Shown here piece by piece: positions 4,638 through 48,609 of a DNA stretch of 64,000 bases. Origin of the DNA: Candidatus Poribacteria bacterium (GTDB taxonomy: Bacteria; Poribacteria; WGA-4E; PCPOR2b); assembly GCA_022826645.1 (NCBI GenBank), contig JAJDUM010000063.1:11657-75656 (forward strand), given 5' to 3'. The translations under genes and the position numbers were made by a program. The notes under the pieces were generated by a model. That model was not told where the DNA came from. It made no database searches and saw nothing but the letters and a program-made list of their open reading frames with translations. Positions within the stretch are counted from its first letter, which is position 1. The number at the start of each line of letters is the position of its first letter.

Positions 4638-4661
4638 CTAAATAGGTTCCCCCCTCGTTTA

Positions 4662-9633: not shown

Positions 9634-9685
9634 GTTTGGAATGGCAGCATCTTATGTATACTACCTTTAGTTGATCATTTGACTT

Positions 9686-12488: not shown

Positions 12489-12555
12489 CATTAATCGTTT
12501 CTCTTATGTCAAGACAACACGCTTTGACTCTGGGATTTTACCAAAGATTTCCGCA

Positions 12556-13851
<1,296 letters not shown>

Positions 13852-14066
13852 TCAAATCCAGTTGGAAGAACAGACTTCCACTTGTCATGATGAAAATAGT
13901 CGTTCATATAAAATTAACCTAAGTTGCTTAGTTATAGAAAACGTTGCAAACTGAACGAATGAAAGCTATATTGAATCAATTACCGCCCCGATAAATCGGG
14001 ATTCAAAGCAACTCGCAGTGGATTGACAAATCCACTGCATACGTACAAAGATGGCTCCGTTCCGCC

Positions 14067-14083
14067 TGTCCCGCCTGTCCCGA
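14067..14083. repeat. small palindromic repeat GTCCCGATCCATCGGG(G)
   Basis: Identical 16-mer at 16329-16344; related CCCGATAAATCGGG at 13987-14000; adjacent 9-bp tandem GCCTGTCCC x2 (14054-14071). Confidence 0.7.
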
Positions 14084-14230
14084 TCCATCGGGGATCTTAT
14101 CGGGGAGAGTCCGAGACTTGGAAATGTCTATCCAAGCCGAGCGGGTGTGACAAATAGCAACTTGCGTTAAAATTAACTGCTTGAGAAGTTTCGGAGTTGA
14201 ACGCTCAAAGCCTTGTAGTTTAGCGATTCA

Positions 14231-15148: not shown

Positions 15149-15245
15149 TACAAGTAGATGTGTTAATCTATTGATATCTTGTTGCCTTGGTGCGACTTGT
15201 CCTCACAACGGTTCTGCCCAAACATATATTAGGAGATTAAGTCAG

Positions 15246-16220: not shown

Positions 16221-16328
16221 TACGCACATAACCGTAGAGATAAATGGGTATACCGAATACCTGTCCATTTGCTGGCTGGCCATCTTTAATTCGCTATTAC
16301 TGATTTTCTCAACCTTTCTTCCCAACCC

Positions 16329-16344
16329 GTCCCGATCCATCGGG
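16329..16344. repeat. small palindromic repeat GTCCCGATCCATCGGG (second copy)
   Basis: 20 bp upstream of start of CARDB gene at 16364. Confidence 0.7.
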
Positions 16345-16363
16345 ATAAAAAAGGGGTATTCGT

Positions 16364-24676: not shown

Positions 24677-24959
24677 TGGATCCTCTTTTGACTTGGGCGT
24701 GACTGAATTTATGCAAATTCAGGGAGTAATTCGGACTCTGGAGAGACAAACTATGCAAGGTCCAGCGCCCGTTATACTGCGTGACTTTTCCGCTTGACAG
24801 TGTGCCCACAAGGTGCTAAACTGCAATGAGATACTATCATTATCAGTCGGACAAATCAAGGACATAATCTCCTTGAATGATCTAAACTCTAAAGTTAATA
24901 TTACGCCAACCGGATTTGCTTAGAAAATCCGATCGTAGTTTTTGGAAGAGAGATCGGTT

Positions 24960-26189
24960 ATGAAGAAAACCACGGCATCTCCTGATTCTGCCCCCACACT
25001 GCCACAGAACCCACTCCTCGCCCCCGATGCGTCAAATCCGACGCTCACCCGTCTCCTGCTGCGCTCAACCGACGAACTTGCAGACGCCACCCGTCCCAGC
25101 TTACTCGCCAATCAACACTCACCTGTGCACTGGTCTCCCAGTGATTGGGACGGGTTAGAGTCCAATCGTGAACCTCTATTCGACATGTCAGCGGTTACCG
25201 CGCAATTCGACCATGCAAGTTTTTTGAGGGATGGATATGCGGTGCTGAGAGAAGTTATGACACCCAAAACGGTCGAAGCGTGGACAGCGGCGCTGAAATA
25301 TGGTCAGGAACTCAACGACAGATTGCTCAAGTCAGACTGGTCAGAAATCGACTGGGAGGTCCTCGGTCGAACGCCACCAACAAAATCTCTCACCGTTGAG
25401 GAGATTAATAACGCGCTCGGAGGGAGCCAGAAGGCACCGCAGTCAGACGATGAGGCAGGTGTGAAAACATTGCGGCAGCACAGTGTTTTTGCCGAGTATT
25501 TTCCGGCAGGTCATGTTCCGTACTTAATGAACGTCCTCACACATCCGCAGATGCTCCAATTGCAGCGGATGAGCCTTGGCAGCGATGACATCTATTTCGA
25601 TCACAACCAGTTATTAACCAGGCCCCCAGGCTATCCCGGTGGTGCGTGGCATAGTCATAAAATCGGTGCTGGGGCGGATAACTGCGGCGTAGCCAGCTTG
25701 TCGGAATACCAGGCACAGCCGAATTTCAACCTCACGCTCTGTTACCCTCAAGGCTTTGAAGCCGAGGACGATGGAGGGTTGAAGATCATTCGGGGTAGCC
25801 ATCTCTTTCGAGATCCGGGAGGGTGTTGGGCTGATACCGACGATGGGATACAGCAGCAGTGGTTGGCTGGACGGGTGCATCCCGTGACCTCCGAGCCGCT
25901 TCAGATTGAACATCTCTCAATTCCGCCGGGAACGGTTGTCTGCTGCCTGTCGCACGCCGCCCATGCGGTGTCGCCCAAAGCCTTGGACAAGGATACCCGT
26001 TGGTGTTCGCTTTTCTGCTACAAGAAGCCGAGCGATGTAACCGGTTACGCCCAGCCATCGCATTCGATTCCGCCAATATGGGCGATGAAGGCACATCGAG
26101 GCGAGCTGCCATCCCTTCTCACCGAGCTATTTCGACCGAGCTACGACAAGGAGTTGACGGGCGGACGGACCGTGGATTCAGAGCTTTGA
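24960..26189 (+). CDS. PhyH-like dioxygenase, long form (paralog of 26194-27318)
   Basis: 409 aa from ATG 24960; FLRDGYAVLREVMTP...EYFPAGH...HLSIPPGTVVCCLSHAAH; paralogous to convergent neighbour. Confidence 0.7.
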   Translation: MKKTTASPDSAPTLPQNPLLAPDASNPTLTRLLLRSTDELADATRPSLLANQHSPVHWSPSDWDGLESNREPLFDMSAVTAQFDHASFLRDGYAVLREVMTPKTVEAWTAALKYGQELNDRLLKSDWSEIDWEVLGRTPPTKSLTVEEINNALGGSQKAPQSDDEAGVKTLRQHSVFAEYFPAGHVPYLMNVLTHPQMLQLQRMSLGSDDIYFDHNQLLTRPPGYPGGAWHSHKIGAGADNCGVASLSEYQAQPNFNLTLCYPQGFEAEDDGGLKIIRGSHLFRDPGGCWADTDDGIQQQWLAGRVHPVTSEPLQIEHLSIPPGTVVCCLSHAAHAVSPKALDKDTRWCSLFCYKKPSDVTGYAQPSHSIPPIWAMKAHRGELPSLLTELFRPSYDKELTGGRTVDSEL

Positions 26190-26193: not shown

Positions 26194-27318
26194 TTAGTTA
26201 AGAGGGTTGTCCGCTTCAAACACACGGCGCTCCGCATCGGAAAGTTTTCCTGCCTCCGCAGTACGCTCTACCCAATGCCTCGGCATGCCACCTGTCCACT
26301 TGGCTGGATCGGCATCGGGGTCTGGGGTCCTATACGCCATTAACAATCCCCACCGAGTCGGTGCCCCCGGTGGACGGCGTTGAACGTGATGCGGCATATG
26401 GTGAACAAATGAAACCATGCTTCCGGGCGGTATTGATAGATGTACAATCTCCAACGGCTTGCCTGTGATCGCGTGGATCTTTCCCTTCAGCCAGTTTGTT
26501 TGCATGTCGGCGTCTTCATCGAGTCGCTCTGTGTTCCACTTAAACGGGATGCGGTAAAGATGGGATCCCGGGATAATGCCAAGTTCCGCTCCATCTCCGC
26601 TCTCTGCCCCTTCTGGGTAGCATAGCGTCCGGATACATTGCTGCTGTAGAAACTCAGAGGTTAACGCCTTACCGGTGCCGATAGGATCTTCAACCTCATA
26701 CTGTCCCTCGCGATACTGGTGAGCGTGCCAACGTCTTCCTCGCGAGTTCGCCGCCCGGTTGAGCATTAAACAGTGATCAAGCACGAAACGGTCACCGAAA
26801 AGTTTTATAAAGAGATTCATCATCTGCGGATGGGCGGTGGTGACATCCATAATAAAATCATCGTATCCTGCTGGGAAATATTCCGGCATCACACCCAGCG
26901 ACTCGTATCCGCGTGTGACCAATGCAGGTCCGGGATCGAGGAGTCCGTGCTCGTGCATGTATGCACGCACCTCTGATCTGAGGAAACCGGGCATCTGTTC
27001 TGATCCACCACAACAACTCTCCAAGAACTCCGGGGTGATTTGCTCCGGCGGAGGCGGCGGCAATCCACGACTCTCAAAATCGATGGAAGCCCAGTCTGTG
27101 TCCGTGAGGATACAGTCGTTCATGTGCTGTAGTTTCTGTAGGCTGGCGGTGAACTGCTTTTGACCTTCCTCGGTCAGTATGCCCTCCCACACCCAAAATC
27201 CTTCCTGCTCGAAGGTGGTGCGGTCAAAGGCGTCCAACACCTCCGGACGCAGCAGATTATCCACGCGAGCTGCTCGTGCAGGATCATCGGTTTGTTTCTG
27301 GTCCTTTGAGTTCTTCAT
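26194..27318 (-). CDS. PhyH-like dioxygenase, long form (paralog of 24960-26189)
   Basis: 374 aa; FEQEGFWVWEGILTEEG...EYFPAGY...VHLSIPPGSMVSFVHHMPHH. Confidence 0.7.
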   Translation of the reverse strand: MKNSKDQKQTDDPARAARVDNLLRPEVLDAFDRTTFEQEGFWVWEGILTEEGQKQFTASLQKLQHMNDCILTDTDWASIDFESRGLPPPPPEQITPEFLESCCGGSEQMPGFLRSEVRAYMHEHGLLDPGPALVTRGYESLGVMPEYFPAGYDDFIMDVTTAHPQMMNLFIKLFGDRFVLDHCLMLNRAANSRGRRWHAHQYREGQYEVEDPIGTGKALTSEFLQQQCIRTLCYPEGAESGDGAELGIIPGSHLYRIPFKWNTERLDEDADMQTNWLKGKIHAITGKPLEIVHLSIPPGSMVSFVHHMPHHVQRRPPGAPTRWGLLMAYRTPDPDADPAKWTGGMPRHWVERTAEAGKLSDAERRVFEADNPLN

Positions 27319-27467: not shown

Positions 27468-28997
27468 ATGGAAATGCATCCAGGAAAACAGGCATTTATA
27501 GACGATTTCTTCATTGAATCAATGGTCGGAGTGCATCGTGTGCTCAATTGCCCGGAAAAAATTACCATTGACGAACCGCTTCACGTAGTTAATCCAGACC
27601 GACCGTGGGAGAGTGAACCCGTTCGCGGCCCAATCATCTACGACGAGAAAAATAACACCTTTCGAATGTACTATCCGGGTGTAGACTCCACGGTGTGCGT
27701 TGTGGAGTCTAGCGATGGGATTCATTGGGAACGGCCTAATTTGGGGGTCGTCGAGTTTGAAGGTTCCAAAGACAATAACATTATCATTTGGCCCAGCGAC
27801 TGCCCATCACTTGGACACATCCTGTGCGACCCGCATGAAACGGACGAAACCTATCGCTGGAAGCGGATAACCACTATGCCCCATGACGGCGTCTGGCAAG
27901 CACTCTACTCTGCCGATGGATACAACTGGTGCCACTACCCCTCCGGTCCTCACAATCATCAGAAACAACTCTTCGCCTTCGGTTCTCCCGCAGAAACCTT
28001 CGGCGGTATCATCAATCCCGACGCGCCCTACATACTCTATGGCCAACGTGGCTCAAGCCGTCGAACCCGCGTTCTCGGACGGCGCGATAGTCAAGACTGC
28101 CTCAATTGGTCCGGCCTGCGCACAGTCATTGATCAAGACCTCAATGACCCACCGGGGAGTGAGTTTTACGCCGCGGGCCATGATATGGCAAACCGGACAG
28201 ATGGCGGATTACATATCATCATGCTTAATGTCTTTTTTACTGATCTGACCGAACCATACGCCATCGAGCAACCGGATCTCTACTGGGGAAATGTCGGGGG
28301 ATCGCCGGCATTGGCAGCGCGGGTGGACGGAGTGGTTGAGCCGCAACTAGCGGTAAGCCGTGATACGGTCTCATGGAACAGATACCGCGAGCCATTTATT
28401 CCGCGTGGCAAACCCGGCGCATGGGATTGGGGGTCCATGTATGTCTCTGGTCCCATTCATCACAATGGGATGCTTTGGTTCTACTACAACGGGGTCGGTT
28501 TAACTCACAACAACCGCACACCACAATTGCACCATGCGCTTAACCCAAAAGAACGTCAGACAGGAATCGGGGTTGCCCAACTCCGCCCCGATGGTTATGT
28601 CAGCGTGGAAGCGGATTCATATGCGCCGGGGGTTCTGACCACGCATCGGTTCCGTCAGGAGTCAGGAGGAAGGGTGACGGTTAACGTGGACGCTACGGCA
28701 GGCGAGCTACGATATGAGGTGTTAGAAGACACCGGCGCGCCCATTCCCGGCTTCACCGTCGCCGATTGCGATCCTATCCGCGGCGATACCCGTGAAGGCG
28801 TGTTATCGTGGAATGGGGTTTCCAGCTGGCCCGGTGTGAACGAGGAACGTCAAGCGAGTTACCCCAATCTGCCCAAAAGAGAGTTCTACATCAAGTTGCG
28901 ATTTTATATCTCTCCGGGAGCCAAATTCTACTCCTTGACCCTAGATCCGCCGGAGGTTACGATGTGGCTGGTTCCCTCACAGTCGGTCCCGGAATAG
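27468..28997 (+). CDS. hypothetical protein, glycoside-hydrolase-like beta-propeller/beta-sandwich fold (family not assignable)
   Basis: 509 aa; no signal peptide; Trp/Gly-rich repeats consistent with 5-bladed propeller GH (GH43/GH32/GH130-like); assignment by gestalt only. Confidence 0.35.
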   Translation: MEMHPGKQAFIDDFFIESMVGVHRVLNCPEKITIDEPLHVVNPDRPWESEPVRGPIIYDEKNNTFRMYYPGVDSTVCVVESSDGIHWERPNLGVVEFEGSKDNNIIIWPSDCPSLGHILCDPHETDETYRWKRITTMPHDGVWQALYSADGYNWCHYPSGPHNHQKQLFAFGSPAETFGGIINPDAPYILYGQRGSSRRTRVLGRRDSQDCLNWSGLRTVIDQDLNDPPGSEFYAAGHDMANRTDGGLHIIMLNVFFTDLTEPYAIEQPDLYWGNVGGSPALAARVDGVVEPQLAVSRDTVSWNRYREPFIPRGKPGAWDWGSMYVSGPIHHNGMLWFYYNGVGLTHNNRTPQLHHALNPKERQTGIGVAQLRPDGYVSVEADSYAPGVLTTHRFRQESGGRVTVNVDATAGELRYEVLEDTGAPIPGFTVADCDPIRGDTREGVLSWNGVSSWPGVNEERQASYPNLPKREFYIKLRFYISPGAKFYSLTLDPPEVTMWLVPSQSVPE

Positions 28998-32084: not shown

Positions 32085-32336
32085 ATGAGTTGGCTGGATG
32101 TTATCCAAATTGGACACGATTTGAAGGTGTGTCCCGACTGCGATCGCGAATATGAGTTGATGGATGAGTTTCTAGCAAAGAGGGATGAACCGCCGATCGG
32201 GGATGATTGGCTTGATGAGATGTTCAGCGAAGAGTATTACATCGCACTTCGGTGCCCGCAGTGTCTGGAAACACGAAATCTGCGCCTCAAATCGCTTACG
32301 CAAAAGCAATATGAAACAGCACGAGAAGAAAACTGA
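32085..32336 (+). CDS. small acidic zinc-ribbon protein (CxxC...CxxC)
   Basis: 83 aa; CPDC ... CPQC pairs; no homolog recognised. Confidence 0.4.
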   Translation: MSWLDVIQIGHDLKVCPDCDREYELMDEFLAKRDEPPIGDDWLDEMFSEEYYIALRCPQCLETRNLRLKSLTQKQYETAREEN

Positions 32337-32590: not shown

Positions 32591-35500
32591 GTGCGAATTA
32601 TCAAAACTTCAAAACAACACCGTCCGTACCCGAAAAAAACATCGCTTTCTACACTATTTTCTAAAAACGGGTGCCGTTTAGCCATCCTTATTCTGCTGTT
32701 CCAATTTTTCCCGTCTCTCTTTTTTATGCAAGGCGGATCACTCGTTTGGGCGTTAAGGTTTCAGACCGCACCGAAGGTATTTGATGATGTCGATGAGGAT
32801 AATGTTTTTAGCCCAAATGGAGATGGTGTACAAGATACCCTCCTTATCAGTTTTGTTACCGATGGAGATCTCGGTGATTTCCGGATTATCATTGATACCC
32901 ATGGTCCGAGTGGGGTTGGCAGGCCCGATAATCAATTTCGCGTTGATGAGGATTGGGTAATAACAGGAGAGCTCGGTCCCGGAATTCATGAGGATGACCA
33001 TCCTAAAGCGATTCGTGAAGCGTGGGATGGACATGACTTTTCCAGACAGCAAGAGGAGAAGAATCCGCATCCACTCAGCGATGGAAGGTATCGAATTAGG
33101 ATCGAAATTGATGCTGTTCCCAACGGGGAAGTGAGTCGTGCGGAATCAGAATACGTTGCAGTTCAGCTTTCGGCGGTAATTGACAATGAGCCACCGCAAC
33201 TATCAGCTACGGTTTCCCAACGGGAATTGTCACCGAATGATGATACTATCATAGATGAAATACAGATCGCCTATGGACTTTCCGAGGATTTGGTGGAGCT
33301 TGAGTTGCAATTTACGAACCCATCAGATCGACCCCCAGTCACTCTAACCCGACTTACGGAAGATAACCACTCATTTACTTGGCGAGGGGATGATGGTTTA
33401 GGCACGCTACTAAGTGATGGTGACTATACCGCTCAACTGCACGGAAGCGACAAGGGCGGCAACACAGTAACTTTTGGACTTGGTACTTTCCAAATTGACA
33501 CAGAGCCTCCCACCATTGCCCAGTTGACGCCAAATCGCAACTCATTTCGGAATACACCGATTGAACAGATTGAGGTGATATTCGACATAGGAGATGGAAG
33601 TCTGATTGATGTTGATTCAACCTTCACGGAGATTGTCTTAGAGGATGCAACCGGTACACGAGCTAACGGGGTTCTTAATCATGATGAAAATGAAGGTCGC
33701 ATGACGCTGACGCTTGATAAGCCACTAGATTCGAGTGGCGAGAACGGAGTTTACAGAATCAGTATTTCTGCTGCAGACAAAGCTGGTAATATTGTCGTAG
33801 ATGAAGTTAGTTTCACCTTTGATAACGTTGCACCGACGATTGCAAGCATTGCTACTGATGCCGGTGAATTGACTCCCGATGCCAGTACCACCAAGAAATT
33901 TACTTTCCTTGATGTGACCTTGGCAGATAACATCGATTCTAGGGTCAATACTTCTTCAACGATTCGCTTGAGTAGGTCTGAGGGAACTGCAGTAGCTGGA
34001 GTTCAGAGTCAAGTTGGAGAAAACGGTCTCCGTTGGACACCGGGATTTCCGCTAGCGACAGATGGTTTTGACGACGGGAACTATACCATCACGGTGCAGT
34101 CTCGAGACCGGGCGGGAAATGAGGTTGAGATTCAGATCCCTTTCATCTACGATACCCAAGCCCCTGAATTAGCTTCACTCACCTCGCAGACAGGGATGCA
34201 GCTCAACTCTTCGGTAGGCGGAAAAACCTTCCTTAACAGTTCTCTGTCCGTGATAACAGCAATTGTTGATGATGAAAACGGGGGCGGCGTTGACTTCAGT
34301 AAAACATCTATTGCGATGCTTGGTGTCACCCAGGTGGCTGGGATAGAAATTCCAGCAGCCATTCAAGGGACACTAACGTCTGATGAAGATAATGACACGC
34401 TAGAATTTCGACTGGACGAGCCACTTGAACACCGTGACGGAAGTCAGGACAGCACCTATCGTATTCAGGTGAGATTGACGGACAAAGCGGGTAATACACA
34501 GACTGAGTTTTTTGATATCGCTTATGATACGCAAATTCCTGCTATTATTTCAACAACCCCGGCTGAAAATGAGACCGTTTCATCCCTGTCACAAGTGTCA
34601 GTTGTCCTGAATGTCGACAGCGGGATTGATTTTTCTGCTTCCGGCGTCAGATTACTCCGTGCGGATGGAAGTGAAGTGAACACCCAGGTACACGACAACG
34701 GCAGAGACACAGTTTCTCTCACCTTGGCGCAACTGTTGGCAATTGACGGATCAGAGGACGGTGCATATACCATTGAAATCACCCCCGTAGATGGTGCAAA
34801 CAACGCGGGACCAACCGTTCGACGCCAATTTTTCATCGCATTGCGGATGCCGGAAATTCGCCTGAATATCCCCACTGAAGCCCGAATCAATGACTTAACA
34901 ACCGTTGATGCGCAGCTGTTTAACTACATCGGTCCGGGGCTTAATTTTGCTGAATCAGAGTCAACAATAACAGTTAGCAGGAATGGGGTAACTGTAGAAG
35001 CAAAACCCGTGATGGCAGATGAAGACAGTATGCGTCTGGTCTGGAGCATCGACAGATCCCTTTCTCGAGATGGTTCGGCGGACGGCGAATACACCGTCAG
35101 CGTCCAATATACGGATCTCATCGGCGAAACGCTTACAGAGGATTTTATTCTGACCTTCGACAGCCAGCCCCCAACAATCGCCGCTGACTCCCATCCCCAA
35201 ATCGCAAATCCCCTTACTACAGAGCGAATTGAAGTTCAATTTGAGGTGACTGATGACTTTGCAGGTGTACAGGGAAGTGGATTTGACGCTGCCACCTCAA
35301 CCTTTGAGTTGTTTGATGTAAACGGTGCTACGGTTGACGGTGCACAAACAAGCGATGGTACCGGTAGATTTGCGTTTCGCTCTCGTGTGCTTCCAGAGGG
35401 TGGCATGTATATCCTCGTTATTACGCTAGCGGATCGGGCGGGCAACCGCAGCATCCCACTGCCGCTTATCTACGATGCCGAAGAGCCTACCATTGAAACA

Positions 35501-38500
35501 GTAAGTCACATTGATCTGACCGCAACTGTCTCCAATGTGAGTGAATTTCTGATGCGAGTGGAAGCGACCGTTAGCGATGTTGGCACAGGTATTGATTTCG
35601 ATCGATCTCTAATTCAGTTGTTGGATGCCACGGGTGAGGCAGTCCCCGGTACACCATATCACGATGATGAAGCCATAATTGGGTGGGAGTTGGCAACCCC
35701 ACTCACCCGTGAAGGCAATTTTGACGGTCTCTACTCACTCCGCGTCAGTGCTGTTGACAAAGCCGGATACGTCGAGGAAAAAACCTTTGCTGTGCGTTAC
35801 GACACGCAGGTGCCCTCTATCCAAACTGCTTTTGCTACAAAAAAGGATGGCACACCTGTAGAACTATCCGAAGCAGAAGCCCCACTGGTTACTTCTCCAA
35901 TTAATCGAGTTACTGTGAGATTCTCTGATGGGGCGGGCAGCGGTATGGATGTTTTACGAACAGCGCTAAGCCTTATCGGGCCAGATGGAGAGCCAATTGG
36001 CACGAACCAGAGTGATAACGAGGTAGATACAGTTTCCCTTTCGTTCAATGCGTTGCGCGCAGATGGATCCGACGATGGGGCTTACCGGATTCAGGTAACC
36101 CCCACCGATTTAGCAGGTAACACCCTCACAAGCCCGGTTGAAATCCTATTTTTCTACGGTACGCGCCAGCCAGAAGTTCTTTCTACAACACCGGCTGAAT
36201 TTGCAGCCGTCACCCATCTCACCGAAGTCAGTGCGATGCTGCAAGACCATAGCAGCGAGGGCATTGATTTTGATCGTGCGTCAATTCGCTTAATTGCTCC
36301 AGACCAATCGGCAATTCTTGGCTATCAAACGGTAGACGAAGCACAATCATCAATTACTTGGCAACTAAACCAACCACTATCACGGGACGGTTCAGCGGAT
36401 GGTGAATACACTATTCAACTATTGCCTGTTGATAAAGCAGGGAACAGTGCAGATATCGAGCATACATTCGTCTACGACACACGGATTCCGACCGTTGTTT
36501 CCGTGACAGCGAACACCAATCCGCTAACAGTTATTCCACCAAATGAATCAACTGCCATTGGCAGTTCCTTTAAAGGATTGACCATCCAGCTTTCTGATAC
36601 AAATGGCGCAACGACACAGGTAAGTGGGGTAGATCTGGTGGGCACCGATGTCCAACTAATCGGTCCCGGTGATACGTCGCTCGGTATCAACACCCGCGAT
36701 GATGGGGTAGATACCATTATAGTCAGTTTCGCTTCGTTGTATCAGTCCGGAACTTACACGCTCGAAATCATACCGCGGGACATGGCAGGTAATGTCTCAA
36801 TTCACCCCATCGAGTACGAATTCGGCTTGGAGCTTGGACACAGTACTGTTTCCGCCGTAACAATTGGTGGTCGAATGGTGCCGGTTGAATTTGTGAACCG
36901 GTTGGACGAAATCGTTGCAACGCTTGAAGATGTTAGTGCTACCGGTTTGAACTTGGCATCAGATGGCTCAACCATTACCGTAATGGGGCCCGATGGCGAG
37001 GTTGAAGGGGTTCAGACCTCACGCGGAGGAAACCAGATTGTGTGGAGACCACTACAGCACACCACAGATGGTTCTGCTGATGGCGTCTACACCGTAACAG
37101 TTACCCCTGTAAATAGTGGTGGTAGATTGGGGATACCTGCTCGGTATCAATTCACGCTTGATACACAGGAACCTGAAGTGGCTTCGGTAACGCCAATCGA
37201 TTTGACGCAGCCGCTGTCCTACATCAGTCAGCAGATTATCCAAATTGCAGCTCAGGTTGAGGATGTGGGACCCGCGGGCTTGGAGGTTAATGACCAACGT
37301 CTTGAACTTCGTGATCCAAGAGGGAATGTTGTGCCAGCGGTGCAGTCCAACGATGGGCAAGCTCAGATTTTCCTAACACTCTCGCAACCCCTTACAGCCG
37401 ATGGAAGCGATGATGGACGATATACCGTCAACCTAGACCTAACAGACAAAGCCGGTAATATTAATCCACTTACCCATCAACTCGTCTACGACACTCAAGC
37501 CCCAACGCTTGTCAGCACTGATCCAACCGATGGCGATCTCCGTAGCGACGATATTACCATAATTACAGCCAATCTGAGAGACCCTGGCAATAGCGGTATC
37601 GATTTTACCGCTTCTGCGTTGACGCTGTTAGATCCAACGGGGACTTCAATTAGCGGTGTACAGAGCAACGATGGGAATCGAAAGCTGGCATTGCAAATCA
37701 ACGGTCTTATAGCGGACGGCACTTACACAATCCGTGTAGATGCAATTGATCGTGCCGGCAACGGATTAAACACCCCGTTTGAAACGCACTTCACCTATTC
37801 ATCCGGTATGCCCGTTGTGGTTTCAACTGTTCCGATAACTACGCCCGCGGAGGAAGCATTTACAAATGAACCGCTCCGTCAAGTTGAAGCCGAATTCCAA
37901 TCGAGTGATGGGGATGTTAATCGCTCTACTATTGCATTGCTTGCCCCCAATGGTACGACTGTTCCAGGACAGCAGGTGCGTCAAGGAAAAATGTTGATTT
38001 ATCGACTCTTGCGCGAACTCGCTACCGATGGATCCGACGATGGTACTTATACCATTGTGGTAGTACCTGTCAATAGCGCAGGGCGACAAGGTGCCCCGCA
38101 GCAGTTTACCTTTGTTTATGACACGGTTGCACCCGAAGTGGAGCCGGGCTCAATTCAACTGATCGTTGCTGAACCGGATGTCAATAATTCGCTGGTTTCG
38201 CTCGGTGCGCTCATCACAGATGACGAACCCGGTTCCGGAGTGGATTGGGATAACCTCGATCTGTCATGGATTACGTTTGATGATATCAGTCGAAAGCGGA
38301 AAATTGACGGGACCCTTGCTACCGATGAAGAACAAGCACTCGTGATAAACCTGATTATGCCACTCGCTAGCGATGGAAGTCAAGATGGTATATATCAGTT
38401 GACGCTTGCCCCCAAGGATCGTGCGGGAAATGTTACTCCAGCGGTTGAATACCTGTTTTTCTACGACACACGTCCGCCGGCGATCGACACTGAATCCTTA

Positions 38501-39526
38501 TTCATTGATGGGCAGCCTTTATTCACTGACTCAAACGATCCGTATTATCCTTCGGCGACCAGTATGGGCGGTGGTGTTACCATTGATGCGAAGTTCTCCG
38601 ATGTCAATCCGGATGGCAGCCCAGGTCTTGGGCCTGATCTAGTCAATTCGTCGATTACTGTGCGTTCCCCTGCTGGAGACGAGATCAGCGGGACCACAAC
38701 ACAGAACGGCACTGACAGCATCCGCTTCAAATCTGGACCGCTCGATGAACAGGGACTTTACCAGGTGACGATTACCAGTGTCGGTTTGGACATTGCAAAT
38801 CTCGGATTCCAACCGACCGATTCGGTCACGACACAATTTCTCTTTGAAACTACAAAGCCAGTTGTTGAGTTGACGGATTTAGTTGGGGAAACAACCTTTG
38901 AGGATGAACCATTACCACTACAAGGCACTGCACGCGATCCATCGGAGGCTGATATCCCCGCATCTGACGTCGCGCTGGTTGAAGTTGTTGGTATCGGGCC
39001 CGATGGTTTTCCGATTGAGCCGGTTGCTGCAAAAGATGAAAGCGAAGGGGAGGAAGATCCTTGGACGCGTTGGTCGGTTGATTTTCTGCCTTCTCAATCT
39101 GGTGAATACAACCTCGATATTCGCGTCACCGATCGTGCTGGTAATGCCGGTATTTACGATGCCGTGACTGTCAATTTTTCAGTGTCACTTATCTTCAAGG
39201 GGCCAACATATGTTTGGCCCAATCCACTCAGCCTGTCAAGACGTTCAAACGACGAAATGGCTCACTTCTCCTTTGAAGTCAATGTTCCCGGTGGCGAAGG
39301 GGCGCGGATTGTCCTAAGTATCTATGACTTTTCTGGCGACTTGGTGTACGAAAAGGAATATAATGACTTGGGGGCCGGCAGGAGCGATAATGAAGTGAGG
39401 TGGGATTTAACCAATCAGGTCGGTACTGATGTTGCCCGTGGAATTTATATTTTCCGCTTAGAAGCGGAGGATATTGTAACGAGCAACCGCACCAATGCGG
39501 TTGGAAAGATTGTCGTGGTGGAGTAG
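32591..39526 (+). CDS. giant surface protein: signal peptide, N-terminal FlgD-Ig-like domain, ~19 SbsA/Big_5-like Ig repeats, C-terminal FlgD-Ig/T9SS-CTD-like sorting domain
   Basis: 2311 aa from GTG 32591 (GGGGGA SD); FSPNGDGVQDTL ... AWDGHDF (FlgD-Ig) at N-term; ~19 repeats ending in DGxYTxxVxxxDxAGN; C-terminal WPNP...IYDFSGDLVYE...WDLTNQVG...GIYIFRLEAED...KIVVVE. Confidence 0.85.
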   Translation: MRIIKTSKQHRPYPKKTSLSTLFSKNGCRLAILILLFQFFPSLFFMQGGSLVWALRFQTAPKVFDDVDEDNVFSPNGDGVQDTLLISFVTDGDLGDFRIIIDTHGPSGVGRPDNQFRVDEDWVITGELGPGIHEDDHPKAIREAWDGHDFSRQQEEKNPHPLSDGRYRIRIEIDAVPNGEVSRAESEYVAVQLSAVIDNEPPQLSATVSQRELSPNDDTIIDEIQIAYGLSEDLVELELQFTNPSDRPPVTLTRLTEDNHSFTWRGDDGLGTLLSDGDYTAQLHGSDKGGNTVTFGLGTFQIDTEPPTIAQLTPNRNSFRNTPIEQIEVIFDIGDGSLIDVDSTFTEIVLEDATGTRANGVLNHDENEGRMTLTLDKPLDSSGENGVYRISISAADKAGNIVVDEVSFTFDNVAPTIASIATDAGELTPDASTTKKFTFLDVTLADNIDSRVNTSSTIRLSRSEGTAVAGVQSQVGENGLRWTPGFPLATDGFDDGNYTITVQSRDRAGNEVEIQIPFIYDTQAPELASLTSQTGMQLNSSVGGKTFLNSSLSVITAIVDDENGGGVDFSKTSIAMLGVTQVAGIEIPAAIQGTLTSDEDNDTLEFRLDEPLEHRDGSQDSTYRIQVRLTDKAGNTQTEFFDIAYDTQIPAIISTTPAENETVSSLSQVSVVLNVDSGIDFSASGVRLLRADGSEVNTQVHDNGRDTVSLTLAQLLAIDGSEDGAYTIEITPVDGANNAGPTVRRQFFIALRMPEIRLNIPTEARINDLTTVDAQLFNYIGPGLNFAESESTITVSRNGVTVEAKPVMADEDSMRLVWSIDRSLSRDGSADGEYTVSVQYTDLIGETLTEDFILTFDSQPPTIAADSHPQIANPLTTERIEVQFEVTDDFAGVQGSGFDAATSTFELFDVNGATVDGAQTSDGTGRFAFRSRVLPEGGMYILVITLADRAGNRSIPLPLIYDAEEPTIETVSHIDLTATVSNVSEFLMRVEATVSDVGTGIDFDRSLIQLLDATGEAVPGTPYHDDEAIIGWELATPLTREGNFDGLYSLRVSAVDKAGYVEEKTFAVRYDTQVPSIQTAFATKKDGTPVELSEAEAPLVTSPINRVTVRFSDGAGSGMDVLRTALSLIGPDGEPIGTNQSDNEVDTVSLSFNALRADGSDDGAYRIQVTPTDLAGNTLTSPVEILFFYGTRQPEVLSTTPAEFAAVTHLTEVSAMLQDHSSEGIDFDRASIRLIAPDQSAILGYQTVDEAQSSITWQLNQPLSRDGSADGEYTIQLLPVDKAGNSADIEHTFVYDTRIPTVVSVTANTNPLTVIPPNESTAIGSSFKGLTIQLSDTNGATTQVSGVDLVGTDVQLIGPGDTSLGINTRDDGVDTIIVSFASLYQSGTYTLEIIPRDMAGNVSIHPIEYEFGLELGHSTVSAVTIGGRMVPVEFVNRLDEIVATLEDVSATGLNLASDGSTITVMGPDGEVEGVQTSRGGNQIVWRPLQHTTDGSADGVYTVTVTPVNSGGRLGIPARYQFTLDTQEPEVASVTPIDLTQPLSYISQQIIQIAAQVEDVGPAGLEVNDQRLELRDPRGNVVPAVQSNDGQAQIFLTLSQPLTADGSDDGRYTVNLDLTDKAGNINPLTHQLVYDTQAPTLVSTDPTDGDLRSDDITIITANLRDPGNSGIDFTASALTLLDPTGTSISGVQSNDGNRKLALQINGLIADGTYTIRVDAIDRAGNGLNTPFETHFTYSSGMPVVVSTVPITTPAEEAFTNEPLRQVEAEFQSSDGDVNRSTIALLAPNGTTVPGQQVRQGKMLIYRLLRELATDGSDDGTYTIVVVPVNSAGRQGAPQQFTFVYDTVAPEVEPGSIQLIVAEPDVNNSLVSLGALITDDEPGSGVDWDNLDLSWITFDDISRKRKIDGTLATDEEQALVINLIMPLASDGSQDGIYQLTLAPKDRAGNVTPAVEYLFFYDTRPPAIDTESLFIDGQPLFTDSNDPYYPSATSMGGGVTIDAKFSDVNPDGSPGLGPDLVNSSITVRSPAGDEISGTTTQNGTDSIRFKSGPLDEQGLYQVTITSVGLDIANLGFQPTDSVTTQFLFETTKPVVELTDLVGETTFEDEPLPLQGTARDPSEADIPASDVALVEVVGIGPDGFPIEPVAAKDESEGEEDPWTRWSVDFLPSQSGEYNLDIRVTDRAGNAGIYDAVTVNFSVSLIFKGPTYVWPNPLSLSRRSNDEMAHFSFEVNVPGGEGARIVLSIYDFSGDLVYEKEYNDLGAGRSDNEVRWDLTNQVGTDVARGIYIFRLEAEDIVTSNRTNAVGKIVVVE

Positions 39527-39604
39527 GTGCGAGTATCCCATTTGAATATAGGTCAAGAGTTAAGGCATTCATTTATGAACCAAAATAAAGAATTGGAGAA
39601 ACGG

Positions 39605-40576
39605 ATGTCCCTAAAACAGAATTTGAAGTTATTCTGCGTCATAGTTTTTGCGATTATTGCTTTTCCCGCTTTTGCCGCAGATATTCACGATGATGCTGGC
39701 ACAGTGGGTGCTGCATTTCTCAAGATTGAGGCTGGGAGCCGTCCCGCTGGTATGGGGGGCGCGTTCGCAGGATTGGCTAACGACGTCAATACCATATACT
39801 GGAATCCCGCTGGCTTGGCAGCGGTCAGCGGACGGCAATTTACTGCGATGCAGAATTTTTCGATTGCAGATATTAGTAACCAATTCCTTGGCTATGCAAA
39901 TAAATTCAGCGAAAAAGCCACTTGGGGAGCGAGTTTCCTCGGTGCGTTTACAGAGATTGAACGCCGTCGTCGACCAACGGAGGAGCCTGATAGCACTGCC
40001 ACAGTTGGAGGTTTTGCTGCGGGCGTGTCTATCGGATATATCTTATCCCCACATTTGTCAGTTGGAGCCACAGCGAAAACAATTTCGCAACAGCTCGACG
40101 TCGAGGACTCAATAGGTGGTGCTGCCGATGTTGGGCTGCTGTTACGAATGCTAGACAATCGACTTGGCCTGGGATTCGCCGCACAAAACTTAGGTTTTCT
40201 GGATACAGGAGAAAATCTGCCGATGAATGTACGGACTGGCATCGCTTACCACGTCCGCACTAAACCTAATGCTGAGGCTGCTAAGCAGCCGCAAGACCTT
40301 TTAGCATTAGCTGCGGACATCAACTACCCTATTGTTGGCGGGTTCCCCACCTTTCATTTAGGTGCGGAGAATTGGCTCTATAACATGCTTGCCCTTCGCG
40401 TTGGATATAGTTTTAGTCAAGGAGAGAATCCCAAAAATGGATTGACCGCCGGGTTTGGATTGCGTCGACTTGGGGAAGCCTCTCTGGAAAATGTCAATTT
40501 TCAGTTGGACTATGCCTTTGTTCCGGATCAAGCGGTCGGAAATGCTCACCGAGTCTCTCTCCTCCTGCGATTCTAA
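39605..40576 (+). CDS. outer-membrane beta-barrel protein, PorV/PorQ/FadL-like (UPF0164-like) family
   Basis: Start at MSLKQNLKLFCVIVFAIIAFPAFA signal peptide (GGAGAAA SD); GSRPAGMGGAFAGLANDVNTIYWNPAGLA hallmark motif; C-terminal F residue. Upstream part of track ORF (39527) overlaps giant gene stop. Confidence 0.55.
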   Translation: MSLKQNLKLFCVIVFAIIAFPAFAADIHDDAGTVGAAFLKIEAGSRPAGMGGAFAGLANDVNTIYWNPAGLAAVSGRQFTAMQNFSIADISNQFLGYANKFSEKATWGASFLGAFTEIERRRRPTEEPDSTATVGGFAAGVSIGYILSPHLSVGATAKTISQQLDVEDSIGGAADVGLLLRMLDNRLGLGFAAQNLGFLDTGENLPMNVRTGIAYHVRTKPNAEAAKQPQDLLALAADINYPIVGGFPTFHLGAENWLYNMLALRVGYSFSQGENPKNGLTAGFGLRRLGEASLENVNFQLDYAFVPDQAVGNAHRVSLLLRF

Positions 40577-40638: not shown

Positions 40639-41673
40639 ATGAACATTATCTGCACAGGAATCAGTTGTTCAGGACGAAAAGAATTGATGGGAGAGTTTAA
40701 AGCACTCTGCCGCGATAAAGGAATCCGGATTGGGTTTTTCAACGTCGGCGATTTTATGCACAACGCGGCTGCAGCTTCCGGCATCCAATTCACGGACAAA
40801 GTGCTTGACTCGGATCCCGCTGTCCTTTCGTTGGCACGCCGATCGGCTTTCTATGAAATAGCCAATATCGCGCATGACTATGATCATACCTTCGTTGGTT
40901 TGCACGCTTGCTTCCGCTGGAATGGAAAACTGGTTGAAGGTGTCTCGTTCAAGGATATGCAGGGTTTCCCGGGCGACGTGTTCGTCAATGTGGTCGACAA
41001 TCTTGCCGACATTGCTCAACGTATGGACGATAATCCGCAGTGGACGGGTATGCGACGCGATGAAATTAATGTCTGGCTCGATGAAGAAGAATTCCTGACC
41101 AAACAATTTGCGAACCTCAAGGAAAAAAATCACTATACTGTTGCTCGACAGCACAATCTGGAAAACTTCTATGACCTGCTTTTTTCAAAGAAGAAAAAAT
41201 TCTACTTGAGCTATCCGATCACACTTCTTCGCCAAGACGCACCGGATCAGATTCAAAGCATCCGTGAGTTTGGCTCAAAGATGCGGAAAAACTTTATCAT
41301 ATTTGATCCGCTCGATATTGCAGATATGGACCTGATTCATTCCACGGAATCACCTCAGGAGGAGACAACTGACGGGGAAATTCCAACTGTAAGTGATATC
41401 GATCAAGATTTCAATGTGCAGATTAAGACACGCACCATCTCCAGAGACTACCAATTCATCCATCAGAGCGATTTTGTTATTGTTATCTATCCAACCGACA
41501 AACTCTCCCCCGGTGTCTTGAGTGAAATGAACTTTGCTTCCCGCTATAATAAACCGGTTTATGCTGTATACTCCCATGCGCGTAGTCCATTTTTCGAGCA
41601 TCTGTGTGAACGAATCTTTGATTCCATTGAGGAACTCGAAACTTTTTTGGAAGATCAGCAGATGCGACTTTAG
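40639..41673 (+). CDS. hypothetical two-domain protein: N-terminal kinase-like domain with degenerate P-loop + C-terminal nucleoside 2-deoxyribosyltransferase-like (NDT/DNPH1-like) domain
   Basis: 344 aa; TGISCSGRKE near N-term; C-terminal KFYLSYPITLL ... SDFVIVIYPTDKLSPGVLSEMNFASRYNKPVYAV matching NDT-like Rossmann fold pattern. Confidence 0.45.
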   Translation: MNIICTGISCSGRKELMGEFKALCRDKGIRIGFFNVGDFMHNAAAASGIQFTDKVLDSDPAVLSLARRSAFYEIANIAHDYDHTFVGLHACFRWNGKLVEGVSFKDMQGFPGDVFVNVVDNLADIAQRMDDNPQWTGMRRDEINVWLDEEEFLTKQFANLKEKNHYTVARQHNLENFYDLLFSKKKKFYLSYPITLLRQDAPDQIQSIREFGSKMRKNFIIFDPLDIADMDLIHSTESPQEETTDGEIPTVSDIDQDFNVQIKTRTISRDYQFIHQSDFVIVIYPTDKLSPGVLSEMNFASRYNKPVYAVYSHARSPFFEHLCERIFDSIEELETFLEDQQMRL

Positions 41674-43873: not shown

Positions 43874-45277
43874 CTAAAACTTCCGCCACGCCCCTTCGGT
43901 AGCAGCGTTAATAAGTGCCCGTTCTTTCTGGCTGCGTTGTATCCGTTGCTCTAAATCAACCGGGTCCCAGTCAGATAGCAGCCGTGCCTGTAGGTCTTTG
44001 AGGATTGACTGATAGGTGCTATCCTCGGCGAGATCTTGGAATTCATTCGGATCGGTTTCAACGTCGTAGAGTTGGGGCGGGTCGCCCAAGCTATAGATAA
44101 GTTTATATCTACCCCGCCGAAGCATCGCGACCGGACGTTGCACACCGTGCGCCAGGTATTCGGAAAAGGCTTCGTCCTTCCACCCCTCCGCTTCTCCACG
44201 CATTAAAGGAAGCAGGCTATCGCCATCCAGAGGCGTGATAGGTGTTGCACCTGCGATCTCAACAATGGTGGAAATAAGGTCTACAAGCGATACAACCTCA
44301 TCAACCCGATGTCCGGCAGGCAAATGTCCGGGCCAAGCAATTTGAAGTGGGACACGAGCGGAGGCTTCATAGAAGTTAGACTTCCGCCACATGCCGTGCT
44401 CACCGTTCATTTCACCGTGATCGCTGGTATACACAATTACAGTGTTATCCAACTGCCCAGTCTCTTCGAGGGCTTCAAAAAGACGACCGATTTTTTCGTC
44501 GAGGTAGGTAATGAGACCGTAGTAACCTGCACGTCCTCTCCGGACCAATTCTTCAGGAAAATCAACGCAACCAAACATACTCCGCATCCGCTTGAAGACA
44601 GGATGCTGGTTTTCCAAATGTCCCTCCGGAATCTCTGGAAGGTCAATCTCATCCAGAGGGTACAGATCCCAAAATCGTTGCGGCACCACGAGTGGGAAAT
44701 GAGGTGCGATGAAAGAGACGTTGAGTGCCCAAGGCTGATCCTTGCGTGCCGGATCGCGGAGGTAGGTCAATGCTCGTTCCTCAGCCAGATCGTCTACTTC
44801 GATTTCCGTGGTGGTTCCCGGACCTGCCTCCTCAAGCCCATACCATGGACGGTTTGCAGCAGGAGTGCCGTTTTCCCAATCAAGGATACCGTGATCGTTC
44901 TCGGCGTGGAGGTCACGGGCAAGTTGGGAGCGGAATCCGTGAAGTTGGTCTAGTCCTTCGAAGTGCTGCTTTCCAGACAGGACTGCATCGTAACCGACGC
45001 CGCGCAACAGATGTGCCCAAGTGACAGTATCAGACGGGAGCGGGGTTGCGTTGTCCCAAGCACCGATGTGATGAATGTAACGACCTGTCATGAAGGACAT
45101 CCGTGAAGGCATACAGAGGGGAGAGTTGCAGTAGGCGTTACTGAATGTAACACCGTCGGCAGCGAGGCGATCCAGATGCGGGGTCTTGACCAAAGGATGT
45201 CCGTAAGGACCACTGTACATCGGGGCATGTTCGTCGGACATGATGAGCAGGATATTGGGCAGATTTGAGGTGTTCAT
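43874..45277 (-). CDS. sulfatase (Cys-type, formylglycine-dependent), no signal peptide
   Basis: 467 aa; ILLIMSDEHA metal-binding N-term, CMPSR (C-x-P-x-R) FGly motif, GKQH lysine-histidine motif. Confidence 0.9.
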   Translation of the reverse strand: MNTSNLPNILLIMSDEHAPMYSGPYGHPLVKTPHLDRLAADGVTFSNAYCNSPLCMPSRMSFMTGRYIHHIGAWDNATPLPSDTVTWAHLLRGVGYDAVLSGKQHFEGLDQLHGFRSQLARDLHAENDHGILDWENGTPAANRPWYGLEEAGPGTTTEIEVDDLAEERALTYLRDPARKDQPWALNVSFIAPHFPLVVPQRFWDLYPLDEIDLPEIPEGHLENQHPVFKRMRSMFGCVDFPEELVRRGRAGYYGLITYLDEKIGRLFEALEETGQLDNTVIVYTSDHGEMNGEHGMWRKSNFYEASARVPLQIAWPGHLPAGHRVDEVVSLVDLISTIVEIAGATPITPLDGDSLLPLMRGEAEGWKDEAFSEYLAHGVQRPVAMLRRGRYKLIYSLGDPPQLYDVETDPNEFQDLAEDSTYQSILKDLQARLLSDWDPVDLEQRIQRSQKERALINAATEGAWRKF

Positions 45278-46813: not shown

Positions 46814-47689
46814 ATGGACAGCAATAAATTTGTCATGTCCGATGAGGAAAAGTACTTTTTCGACCTCACGGGCTACCTCGTCGTTCGTGGTGCGCTGACG
46901 CCAGAAGAGGTTGACGTATGTAATGCCACAATTAACCACTATGCCGAGAAAATTCGAGCCCGTTCGGTTGATGATGGTGGGCTTGCCCGCGGATCATCAA
47001 CACTTCAGGGACAAACAGGACGATTGGAACTGACGGGGATGTTAGGGTGGGAGAAACCCTATCGAGAACCTTTCCGCGATCTACTCGTCCATCCGGTCGT
47101 TGTCTCCCGCCTAAACGGAATGTGCGGGAAAGGGTTTCGGCTTGATCATGGACCGTTGATGATTGGGGCGACAGCGGGAACGGAAGGGCATCAACTACAT
47201 GGAGCGGGCGAACCGTTCAGCGCGGCTGTCTGGTATCATCAGCAGAACGGAACTATCTACTGTCGGGGTGTTACTGTGGCATGGCAACTCACTGACGTCA
47301 ATGAAGGTGATGGAGGGTTTGCAGTGGTTCCCGGAAGCCACAAATCCTGTGAACCCACACCTGAAAGTGTCCGGAGCGTGGAAGACGACATGGGACTGGC
47401 TGTGCAACCGGCGATGAAGGCAGGGGATGTCCTCTTTTTTGCAGAAACTGCCACCCACGGCACGCTCCCTTGGACGGGTAAGGGTGAACGGCGCTCCATA
47501 CTCTACAAATATGCATCCCGCGGCGTTGCCCGCGCGGTTGGTCGATTTTTTACCCCTGAAGCACGCTTTGGCGACTGGACGAAAACCCTCTCGCCTGAAC
47601 AGTATGCCGTACTTTACGGTCCGGGTGTTCATACAGGGGGCGACCTTCCATTGCTTAAATCTGACGGAAAGAAAACTTGGGTTGCATAG
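46814..47689 (+). CDS. PhyH family dioxygenase (tandem paralog 1)
   Basis: 291 aa; FFDLTGYLVVRGALTPEEV N-terminus. Confidence 0.8.
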   Translation: MDSNKFVMSDEEKYFFDLTGYLVVRGALTPEEVDVCNATINHYAEKIRARSVDDGGLARGSSTLQGQTGRLELTGMLGWEKPYREPFRDLLVHPVVVSRLNGMCGKGFRLDHGPLMIGATAGTEGHQLHGAGEPFSAAVWYHQQNGTIYCRGVTVAWQLTDVNEGDGGFAVVPGSHKSCEPTPESVRSVEDDMGLAVQPAMKAGDVLFFAETATHGTLPWTGKGERRSILYKYASRGVARAVGRFFTPEARFGDWTKTLSPEQYAVLYGPGVHTGGDLPLLKSDGKKTWVA

Positions 47690-47748
47690 TAAAACCGAGT
47701 CAACACAGTTGCCGCACGGATATAACCCGCGAAATAGAGAGAGGCAAA

Positions 47749-48609
47749 ATGGACAAACGTGAACGCTACTTCTGGGACCTTACCGGATACCTTATCCTCA
47801 GAAATGTACTGACCGCCGATGAAATTGCGGCAGCCAATGAAGCGATAGATCACTGTGCCGATCAAATTTATGTTGGTGGCTCCAACGAGGGGGCCCGGGA
47901 TTCTCAGGCTCTGAGAGGCACCGAAGCGCGCACCCTCCACAGTCTACTTGAACTGGAAGAACCGTATTGTGATCCTTTCCGCAAGATGCTCGTGCATCCA
48001 CAGATCATCATGCGCCTCAATGTAATGTGTGGAACAGGCTTCCGTTTCGATCACGGTCCTTGGGTGACCGATAGTGTGAAAGGTACCGAAGGGCTGACCC
48101 TGCACGGGCAGGGCGAACCGCACAGACCCTACGTCGCCTACCATCATCAGAATAATAGGATGCACTGCGGTGGAGTGACTGTAACTTGGCAGCTCACTGA
48201 TATCAACGCGGGTGATGGGGGATTCGCCTGCGTTCCCGGTAGCCACAAATCGAGATTTGCCATGCCCCATGGCGTGCGAACCTGCGACGACGATATGGGG
48301 GTGGTCATCCAACCGGAACTGAAGGCGGGGGACGTGATTTTCTTCATGGACGGTGCCCAAACGCACGGCACACTCCCTTGGCGCGCTGAACATCGTCGGC
48401 GATCGGTGCTCTTCAAATACGCTGACCGAACCTCTGTACGGACAGGTGCAGCCCGGGAAATAGCACCTCCGGAAATCTATTGGGGAGAGGAACTTGTGGA
48501 AGGTATGACAGAAGCGCAACGTGCCGTTATGCATGGACCTTGTTCATCACTCCACTCCAGCAAGCTCGCGGTGGACGCAGACGGCACCGTTCGTGTCGAG
48601 GATGATTAG
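47749..48609 (+). CDS. PhyH family dioxygenase (tandem paralog 2)
   Basis: Start at MDKRERYFWDLTGYLILRNVLTADEI (GAGAGG SD); track ORF starts upstream at 47677 overlapping previous gene. Confidence 0.8.
   Translation: MDKRERYFWDLTGYLILRNVLTADEIAAANEAIDHCADQIYVGGSNEGARDSQALRGTEARTLHSLLELEEPYCDPFRKMLVHPQIIMRLNVMCGTGFRFDHGPWVTDSVKGTEGLTLHGQGEPHRPYVAYHHQNNRMHCGGVTVTWQLTDINAGDGGFACVPGSHKSRFAMPHGVRTCDDDMGVVIQPELKAGDVIFFMDGAQTHGTLPWRAEHRRRSVLFKYADRTSVRTGAAREIAPPEIYWGEELVEGMTEAQRAVMHGPCSSLHSSKLAVDADGTVRVEDD

Follow-up and report, generated by a model that had tools for sequence, protein, structure and literature searches.

Do a giant repeat protein and the outer-membrane β-barrel encoded directly behind it work as a pair, and if so, of what kind? 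The question is raised by a locus of a Candidatus Poribacteria bacterium (assembly GCA_022826645.1, contig JAJDUM010000063.1), lying in a 64,000-nucleotide stretch of DNA that covers positions 11,657 to 75,656 of the contig's forward strand and is here called the window. A preliminary description of the window, made from the sequence alone, had proposed that a 2311-aa protein of immunoglobulin (Ig)-like repeats ends in a C-terminal domain (CTD) resembling those of type IX secretion system (T9SS) cargo, and that the gene 78 bp downstream encodes a PorV/FadL-like barrel dedicated to its secretion and anchoring. Both open reading frames (ORFs) exist as described (Table 1). Our analysis favors, with a probability of roughly 0.55, reading the pair as a cognate cargo/barrel module for surface display, of the T9SS kind, the barrel receiving the giant adhesin and probably anchoring it. 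This reading is carried by the domain identities of the two proteins, the homology of the giant's CTD to that of PorU, the family to which the barrel belongs, and the conservation of the pair across the phylum, all of which are observed.

A PorU-like tail and a PorV/PorQ-family barrel

The final domain of the giant protein is related to the CTD of PorU. When a profile of Poribacteria CTDs was compared with the PDB, the sole significant match was to residues 1060–1154 of the 1156 residues of Porphyromonas gingivalis PorU (E 2.3e-6), and the PorU CTD is the domain's only significant solved relative both by sequence and by fold, with FlgD as the second-best structural neighbor. An AlphaFold2 (AF2) model of the CTD is a β-sandwich of six to seven strands (predicted local distance difference test, pLDDT, 72.6); as in type A cargo, a β-sandwich homologous to known T9SS CTDs (~80–100 aa) occupies the extreme C-terminus. 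Among NCBIfam models, the best match of the CTD is the C-terminus of the PorU model (38.3 bits), that of the PorZ model being weaker (19.6 bits), and the same scan gave no match to the type B sorting-domain model TIGR04131. In Pfam, FlgD_ig (PF13860) scores 50.8 bits on the whole giant in two stretches, the better at residues 2224–2293, and passes its cut-off on the isolated 110-aa CTD (27.8 bits vs 27), while CHU_C (PF13585) lies just above its cut-off of 27 on the whole giant (27.8 bits). Because the CTD stands outside any flagellar context, its FlgD_ig membership is at the level of fold only. Taken with the solved-structure comparison, these Pfam and NCBIfam scores make the earlier characterization of the tail, as a hybrid of a T9SS CTD and a FlgD-Ig domain, an accurate one.

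The distribution of this domain was determined with an exhaustive search of the CTD profile in 1.84 billion representative proteins, which replaced a word-indexed search that had given 8 fragments. It yielded 2170 matches at E ≤1e-3, including 32 at E ≤1e-30. Strong C-terminal matches are nearly all giant orthologues or fragments of them, with 3–29 of the same Ig modules, and among the best 150 of the 2170 matches the domain lies at the extreme C-terminus in 64 of the 65 proteins that have one or two copies. Two short database entries were also encountered: P0126 (144 aa), in which a lipoprotein-like signal is followed directly by a giant-type CTD, and P0128 (198 aa), in which an unrelated N-terminal region is fused to the last 46 residues of such a CTD. 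These could be real small CTD proteins or artefacts of assembly or gene calling.

Most of the giant protein consists of Ig-like modules. A hidden Markov model (HMM) built from the protein's own units recognized 18 of them (E 1e-11 to 6e-34), one fewer than the approximate count of 19 given before. Pfam models Big_13 (182 bits), Big_5 (76.8), Big_3_2 (69), and Big_3_3 (46.7) all score above their cut-offs, confirming an Ig-repeat protein of surface type with Big_5-type modules, and a motif scan found DGxYxxxVxxxDxAGN at the end of many modules. The N-terminal FlgD-Ig domain that had been proposed is supported by a motif alone (FSPNGDG): isolated residues 56–203, when scanned with Pfam, matched part of CHU_C over FSPNGDGVQDTL (E 1e-3) but did not match FlgD_ig. 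A FlgD-type NCBIfam model aligns to residues 259–303, within module 1, and the second FlgD_ig stretch of the whole protein may lie in that module.

Across Poribacteria, giant orthologues range from ~2080 to >3460 aa and vary in module number. BLAST comparisons with distant orthologues gave ~50–59% identity over the C-terminal third, ~30–47% over the first and middle modules, and either 34–56% or, often, no match for the N-terminal domain. This gradient, conserved toward the C-terminus and variable toward the N-terminus, is consistent with anchoring at the C-terminus and a variable tip that is exposed. At its N-terminus the giant has a basic stretch followed by a hydrophobic core, as does its orthologue P0134; signal peptides of both the giant and the barrel were recognized by visual reading of the sequence rather than by a predictor.

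The downstream protein belongs to the PorV/PorQ family of outer-membrane barrels. It has a signal peptide at residues 1–24 (by eye, ending ...AFA), a conserved N-terminal motif (GSRPAGMGGAF...WNPAGLA), and a phenylalanine as its last residue. The only NCBIfam family whose curated cut-off it passes is NF033709, PorV/PorQ (141.6 bits vs 90), with residues 34–323 aligned to positions 2–326 of the 326-position profile. It falls short of both equivalog models, PorV NF033710 (47.3 bits vs 250) and PorQ NF033711 (72.8 bits vs 220), aligning to each over the N-terminal two-thirds only. In Pfam, it passes UPF0164 (30 bits vs 21.4) and has sub-threshold matches to PorV and to Toluene_X/FadL (19.4 bits vs 29.7), and neither Pfam nor NCBIfam returned PorP/SprF models among its matches. 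Its only PDB sequence match, in a phmmer search, is Flavobacterium johnsoniae PorV (E 1.1e-8). An AF2 model built from 22 Poribacteria sequences, all at least 57% identical, is all-β with ~14 long strands and of low confidence (mean pLDDT 53, predicted template modeling score 0.59), and was used for coarse fold ranking only; Foldseek comparisons with it placed PorV structures 8gl6_F and 6h3i_F at the top, followed by FadL and TodX. The prediction of a PorV/PorQ/FadL-like barrel is thus borne out by a full-length family match and by PDB sequence, with the coarse fold ranking in agreement. Profile searches therefore support both folds, that of the barrel and that of the CTD, on which the preliminary description had made its proposal depend.

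The scan for terminators revealed no terminator-like hairpin in the 78-bp spacer, and sequence and domain scans found neither a second copy of the CTD nor a further PorV-like gene in the 64-kb window.

Table 1 Features of the giant/barrel locus, in window positions.
Feature	Position	Strand	Details and basis
Giant Ig-repeat protein gene	32591..39526	+	2311 aa; GTG start, TAG stop; ORF translation and Pfam
N-terminal signal-like region, giant residues 1–54	32591..32752	+	Basic n-region, hydrophobic core LAILILLFQFFPSLFF, then ...LVWA; judged by eye
Variable N-terminal (distal) domain, giant residues 56–191	32756..33163	+	Contains FSPNGDGVQDTL motif; partial CHU_C motif match
18 tandem Ig-like modules of ~100 aa, giant residues 192–2188	33164..39154	+	Self-built HMM, motif scan, Pfam
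C-terminal β-sandwich (CTD), 110 aa, giant residues 2202–2311	39194..39523	+	WPNP...FSF...IYDFSGDLV...W(D/N)L...ARGIYIFRLEA...GKIVVVE
Intergenic spacer, 78 bp	39527..39604	+	GGAGA 5 nt upstream of ATG; sequence reading, terminator scan
PorV/PorQ-family outer-membrane β-barrel gene	39605..40576	+	323 aa; ATG start; NF033709, PDB phmmer, Foldseek

Conservation of the gene pair

Conservation was assessed in 80 species-level Poribacteria loci, one per contig, retrieved by the barrel from a collection of species-representative metagenome-assembled genomes. Barrel homologues carry the name Candidatus Poribacteria. Across these genomes barrel identity ranges from 98% (as on the 6.35-Mb complete chromosome OZ244825.1) down to 55%, and each locus has a single barrel gene, no paralogue being found within 10 kb on either side in the 80 loci. 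In 75 of the 80, the CTD-coding end of a giant ORF lies directly upstream of the barrel on the same strand, at a computed gap of ~300 nt or less in all but three of these pairs (72 of 75), and the giant ORF exceeds 2000 codons wherever the locus is long enough to show it. The genes that flank the pair in the window are far less constant: its downstream 344-aa gene is present in 23 of the 80 loci, its upstream 83-aa gene in 16, and its upstream GFO gene in 13, and independent look-ups of the loci show that other neighbors of the pair differ clade by clade. Divergent giants, whose named members are from Poribacteria, are also paired with a barrel orthologue, directly in locus L094 and with one gene between in L093. 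We consider functional coupling of the giant and the barrel to be strongly supported by this synteny.

Some loci deviate from this layout. In L036, the two genes are separated by a 369-aa ORF (8555–9661) rich in AAARRKAEA-type repeats, and the giant frame (1–8362) is split; in L028 the gap widens to 1.2 kb. On a low-coverage (2x) contig, L002 (3018–9952), the giant is broken into three ORFs, which probably stems from sequencing frameshifts.

A related arrangement exists outside Poribacteria. The barrel's only plasmid match is a PorV/PorQ-family protein on Rhodothermus marinus pRMAR01, which shares 27% identity with the Poribacteria barrel (E 3e-18), scores 215.9 bits against NF033709, and, like it, is not an equivalog of either PorV or PorQ. 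The gene that overlaps it upstream encodes a 1132-aa hypothetical protein whose tail is homologous to the giant's CTD (32% identity, E 3e-10). The two R. marinus genes, RMAR_RS14115 and RMAR_RS14110, thus occur in the same order as in Poribacteria, adjacent or overlapping, and the arrangement of a CTD protein and a PorV-family barrel is kept in other Rhodothermales (loci L090 and L091). These loci also encode canonical type A CTD proteins (Por_Secre_tail matches). Rhodothermota is a phylum of the Fibrobacterota–Chlorobiota–Bacteroidota (FCB) group, outside which Poribacteria are placed by NCBI taxonomy. Pairs of this kind, for which the preliminary description had asked elsewhere, are therefore found both in further Poribacteria and in Rhodothermales.

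We also considered whether the upstream R. marinus protein might be PorU itself, in a porU–porV pair, and ruled this out: it lacks a C25 domain, matches the PorU model only via its tail, and has no Pfam match. In Rhodothermales the pair is embedded in a five-gene cluster (L089, pRMAR01 5989–17564; L090; L091) comprising an FG-GAP protein with a T9SS type A tail, a CarboxypepD_reg-Plug outer-membrane barrel, the ~1135-aa CTD protein, the PorV/PorQ-family barrel, and an Amidase_2/peptidoglycan-recognition protein. A CarboxypepD_reg-Plug outer-membrane protein also follows the barrel in L006, a Poribacteria locus.

Counter-evidence, rival explanations, and a possible mechanism

Several observations weigh against a cognate display module and give other explanations their footing. 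On its own, the CTD is under the curated cut-offs of CHU_C/PF13585 (21.2 bits vs 27), Por_Secre_tail PF18962 (15.1 bits vs 27), and TIGR04183 (18.2 bits vs 23), and orthologous CTDs score 14.9–18.4 bits in the type A sorting-domain HMM scan. Of the best 150 CTD-profile matches, 85 are generic FlgD_ig repeat proteins in which 3–33 copies stand internally in tandem, so that the CTD-type domain is not exclusively a sorting tag. The tail could then be purely structural, a further Ig/FlgD-like domain in a repeat protein that is periplasmic, secreted, or part of an S-layer and has no specific interaction with the barrel, with the adjacency of the genes reflecting co-regulation of envelope functions. 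Besides the tandem copies, this would account for FlgD_ig being the best Pfam match of the CTD, for FlgD being its second-best structural neighbor, and for a Wallbacteria giant whose related tail has no barrel adjoining it. We nonetheless consider this explanation improbable: the tail is conserved as much as any part of the giant and is always its last domain, the one PDB sequence to which it is significantly related is the CTD of PorU, a PorV binder, and Rhodothermales independently show the same association with a PorV-family barrel.

For the barrel, the low pLDDT of its model is a further point on the same side, as is a clade of four loci (L027, L029, L031, and L032) in which an intact barrel is kept with unrelated genes upstream and no adjacent giant gene. 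These loci (OZ240245.1, OZ245030.1, OZ242326.1, and OZ242351.1, locus positions ~8400–12100) come from smaller genomes of 4.7–4.9 Mb and also keep a ~350-aa gene downstream of the barrel. Retention of the barrel without the giant would suit a FadL/TodX-type channel for hydrophobic compounds that is functionally unrelated to the giant, as would the weak Toluene_X/FadL match, the ranking of FadL and TodX as next-best folds after PorV, and the Pfam assignment to UPF0164, a family defined in Treponema, a genus not known to have a T9SS. Such a channel is, in our view, highly improbable, given that the barrel stays next to the CTD gene in 75 of 80 loci while the surroundings change, that the PorV family alone passes an NCBIfam cut-off, and that PorV is the only PDB sequence match. 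Synteny, together with the specific similarities to the PorU CTD and to PorV, thus disfavors both the structural-domain and the channel explanations.

The same clade bears on the main rival to our interpretation, in which Poribacteria have a complete, so far undescribed T9SS and the barrel, as its general PorV, serves all CTD cargo and merely sits beside the largest or most abundant cargo gene. Two other CTD proteins, found besides the giants in 1.65 Mb of Poribacteria DNA, have canonical tails of the form NFPNPFNPETWIPYQL...GVYFYTL: a 617-aa protein with a DUF7482-like region (L024:8764–10614, minus strand), which passes TIGR04183 (29.5 bits vs a cut-off of 23), and a dockerin/EF-hand protein of the same tail type (L054:19486–20976, plus strand). 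Poribacteria therefore encode T9SS-type-A-like CTD proteins in addition to the giant, and since the barrel is kept without the giant in one clade, it may serve several cargoes; the presence of a single barrel orthologue per locus, with no paralogue within 10 kb, is also what a general PorV would predict. Set against this are the failure of the barrel to reach the PorV and PorQ equivalog cut-offs, the tight, phylum-wide linkage of the barrel to one cargo, an arrangement not known for porV and ordinary cargo, and the formation by the giant CTD of a subfamily of its own, almost all matches at E <1e-20 being giant orthologues; T9SS core genes, moreover, are so far undemonstrated in Poribacteria. 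A general PorV thus strikes us as somewhat unlikely. For the dedicated pair claimed in the preliminary description, the part that stands is functional coupling, upheld by the 75/80 synteny against 13–23 for the flanking genes, by the divergent Poribacteria, and by the Rhodothermales pair; that the barrel is dedicated to the giant is unproven, in view of the clade without the giant and the other CTD proteins.

The last group of adverse observations concerns the secretion machinery. HMM scans of 40 window ORFs (a few ORFs of 150–230 aa were left out) found no SprA/Sov, PorK/L/M/N, PorU, or PorZ, in agreement with the earlier statement that the window contains no T9SS core genes. SprA measures roughly 2400 aa; the 1.65 Mb of Poribacteria loci, surveyed for ORFs of 700 aa or more, contain none above 1443 aa except the giants, and no whole-genome search for the T9SS core was made. 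The literature searched contained no report of a T9SS or PorV in Poribacteria. One candidate was rejected: a faint PorZ_N match on a 1431-aa protein in L006 belongs to a glycosylhydrolase-like protein and not to PorZ. A more novel idea is that Poribacteria have no T9SS translocon or motor and that the giant and the barrel are a self-sufficient two-gene display system, a minimal or ancestral CTD/PorV module operating without SprA and PorKLMN, for example by BAM (β-barrel assembly machinery)-assisted or barrel-mediated export followed by non-covalent anchoring. We regard this idea as rather improbable; if true, it would mean that CTD–PorV recognition predates the T9SS machine or can be uncoupled from it.

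Returning to the cognate module that we favor, we infer binding of the CTD by the barrel, retention of the CTD, a surface location, and an outer-membrane route as its working parts. The giant protein would be exported by Sec, after which its last 110 residues would fold into the T9SS-type β-sandwich and be recognized, at the outer membrane, by the PorV/PorQ-family barrel that the neighboring gene encodes. Crossing of the outer membrane would need a SprA/Sov-like translocon. The CTD would most probably remain attached to the barrel without a covalent bond, in the way that the CTDs of PorU and PorZ, which are not cleaved, remain on PorV and PorQ, and a barrel so occupied would act as the membrane anchor, possibly also as the receiving shuttle. 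By analogy, a stable anchoring role seems at least as likely as a shuttle role, because the tail of the giant resembles the retained CTD of PorU more than the cleaved CTDs of cargo. The conserved C-terminal third of the giant would then form a stalk, from which the variable N-terminal modules may project outward as an adhesin or surface layer.

Surrounding genes and relation to known systems

Two genes flank the pair. The 344-aa gene that follows the barrel (40639–41673, plus strand) was evaluated as a third component and ruled out: it accompanies the barrel in only 23 of the 80 loci, the giant-less clade among them, and its product looks cytosolic. That protein has weak AAA_17 and nucleoside 2-deoxyribosyltransferase/SLOG-like matches, and is probably cytosolic and unrelated to the pair. 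On the other side, a small 83-aa ORF (32085–32336, plus strand) ends 254 bp before the giant gene; it is 82–98% identical in 16 closely related loci, and no Pfam match is on record for its L001 orthologue.

Gene products elsewhere in the window include a choline-sulfatase-like sulfatase (43874–45277), several GFO/IDH/MocA oxidoreductases, PhyH dioxygenases, a BNR sialidase-like protein, a xylose-isomerase-like TIM barrel, and a lactonase, a content that fits the carbohydrate-degrading lifestyle described for Poribacteria. A YhgA-like putative transposase (18910–19860, plus strand; Transposase_31, E 6e-32) lies between an 825-aa CARDB/terpene-cyclase-like gene (16364–18841) and a DUF1611 gene. 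Five ORFs of 305–509 aa gave no NCBIfam match at E up to ~1e-3 (14231–15148 and 26194–27318 on the minus strand; 24942–26189, 27468–28997, and 47677–48609 on the plus strand), and all of these but the last also gave no Pfam match at E up to 1e-4 or 0.01.

Poribacteria are abundant, uncultivated symbionts of sponges, and their cell surface is the interface with the host. At 2100 to >3400 aa, the giant is probably the largest conserved surface protein of the phylum, and the barrel is most likely its outer-membrane holder; because it encodes both, the pair is a concrete candidate for adhesion to the host matrix or for a surface layer.

How does the pair compare with systems already known? In its 18 Ig-like modules with the DGxYxxxVxxxDxAGN signature, the giant resembles S-layer proteins and adhesins of the Big_5/SbsA-type and Big_13 families. 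These families are generic building blocks, however, and membership in them is uninformative on export or anchoring. In the fold ranking of the low-confidence barrel model, FadL and TodX channels stand second to PorV, and the barrel scores above the cut-off of the Treponema UPF0164 family. It differs from these in that its FadL HMM match is sub-threshold, both its sequence and its fold are nearer to PorV, and partnership with a CTD protein is no feature of FadL.

A further parallel is offered by the attachment complex of P. gingivalis, in which the CTDs of PorU and PorZ are uncleaved and are retained on PorV and PorQ, respectively (PMC10202324). Unlike PorU and PorZ, the Poribacteria passenger is an Ig-repeat giant without a C25 peptidase or a PorZ propeller. 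Its barrel partner stays below the equivalog cut-offs of both PorV and PorQ, the host is outside the FCB group, and the rest of the T9SS is not seen in the window.

In gene organization the pair recalls type B cargo, whose genes are usually clustered with those of their PorP/SprF barrels, the barrels being proposed anchors (PMC10202324). The example of SprB–SprF from F. johnsoniae comprises a giant repeat adhesin whose gene is clustered with that of its own PorV-like barrel, which is needed for secretion and is the proposed surface anchor (PMC10202324). In Poribacteria too, a giant repeat gene of adhesin type is clustered with the gene of a PorV-like barrel. The components, however, are of another kind: the CTD is not type B (no TIGR04131 match, and CHU_C at 21 bits alone), and the barrel belongs to the PorV/PorQ family rather than to PorP/SprF.

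In the Rhodothermales pair, the CTD and the barrel are homologous to those of Poribacteria and the gene order is the same. Its ~1135-aa passenger is nevertheless unrelated, with no Ig modules and no Pfam matches, and its genes are embedded in a larger cluster. What is new in Poribacteria is the combination of a barrel from a distinct PorV/PorQ subfamily, a PorU-like tail that lies under the type A and type B thresholds, a pair found throughout the phylum, and a host phylum that NCBI taxonomy does not include in the FCB group. Bacteroidota supplied the known cases of a CTD protein that has a PorV-like barrel of its own; with a distinct PorV/PorQ-subfamily barrel and a PorU-like CTD, the principle now extends to a non-FCB phylum without a reported T9SS in the literature searched.

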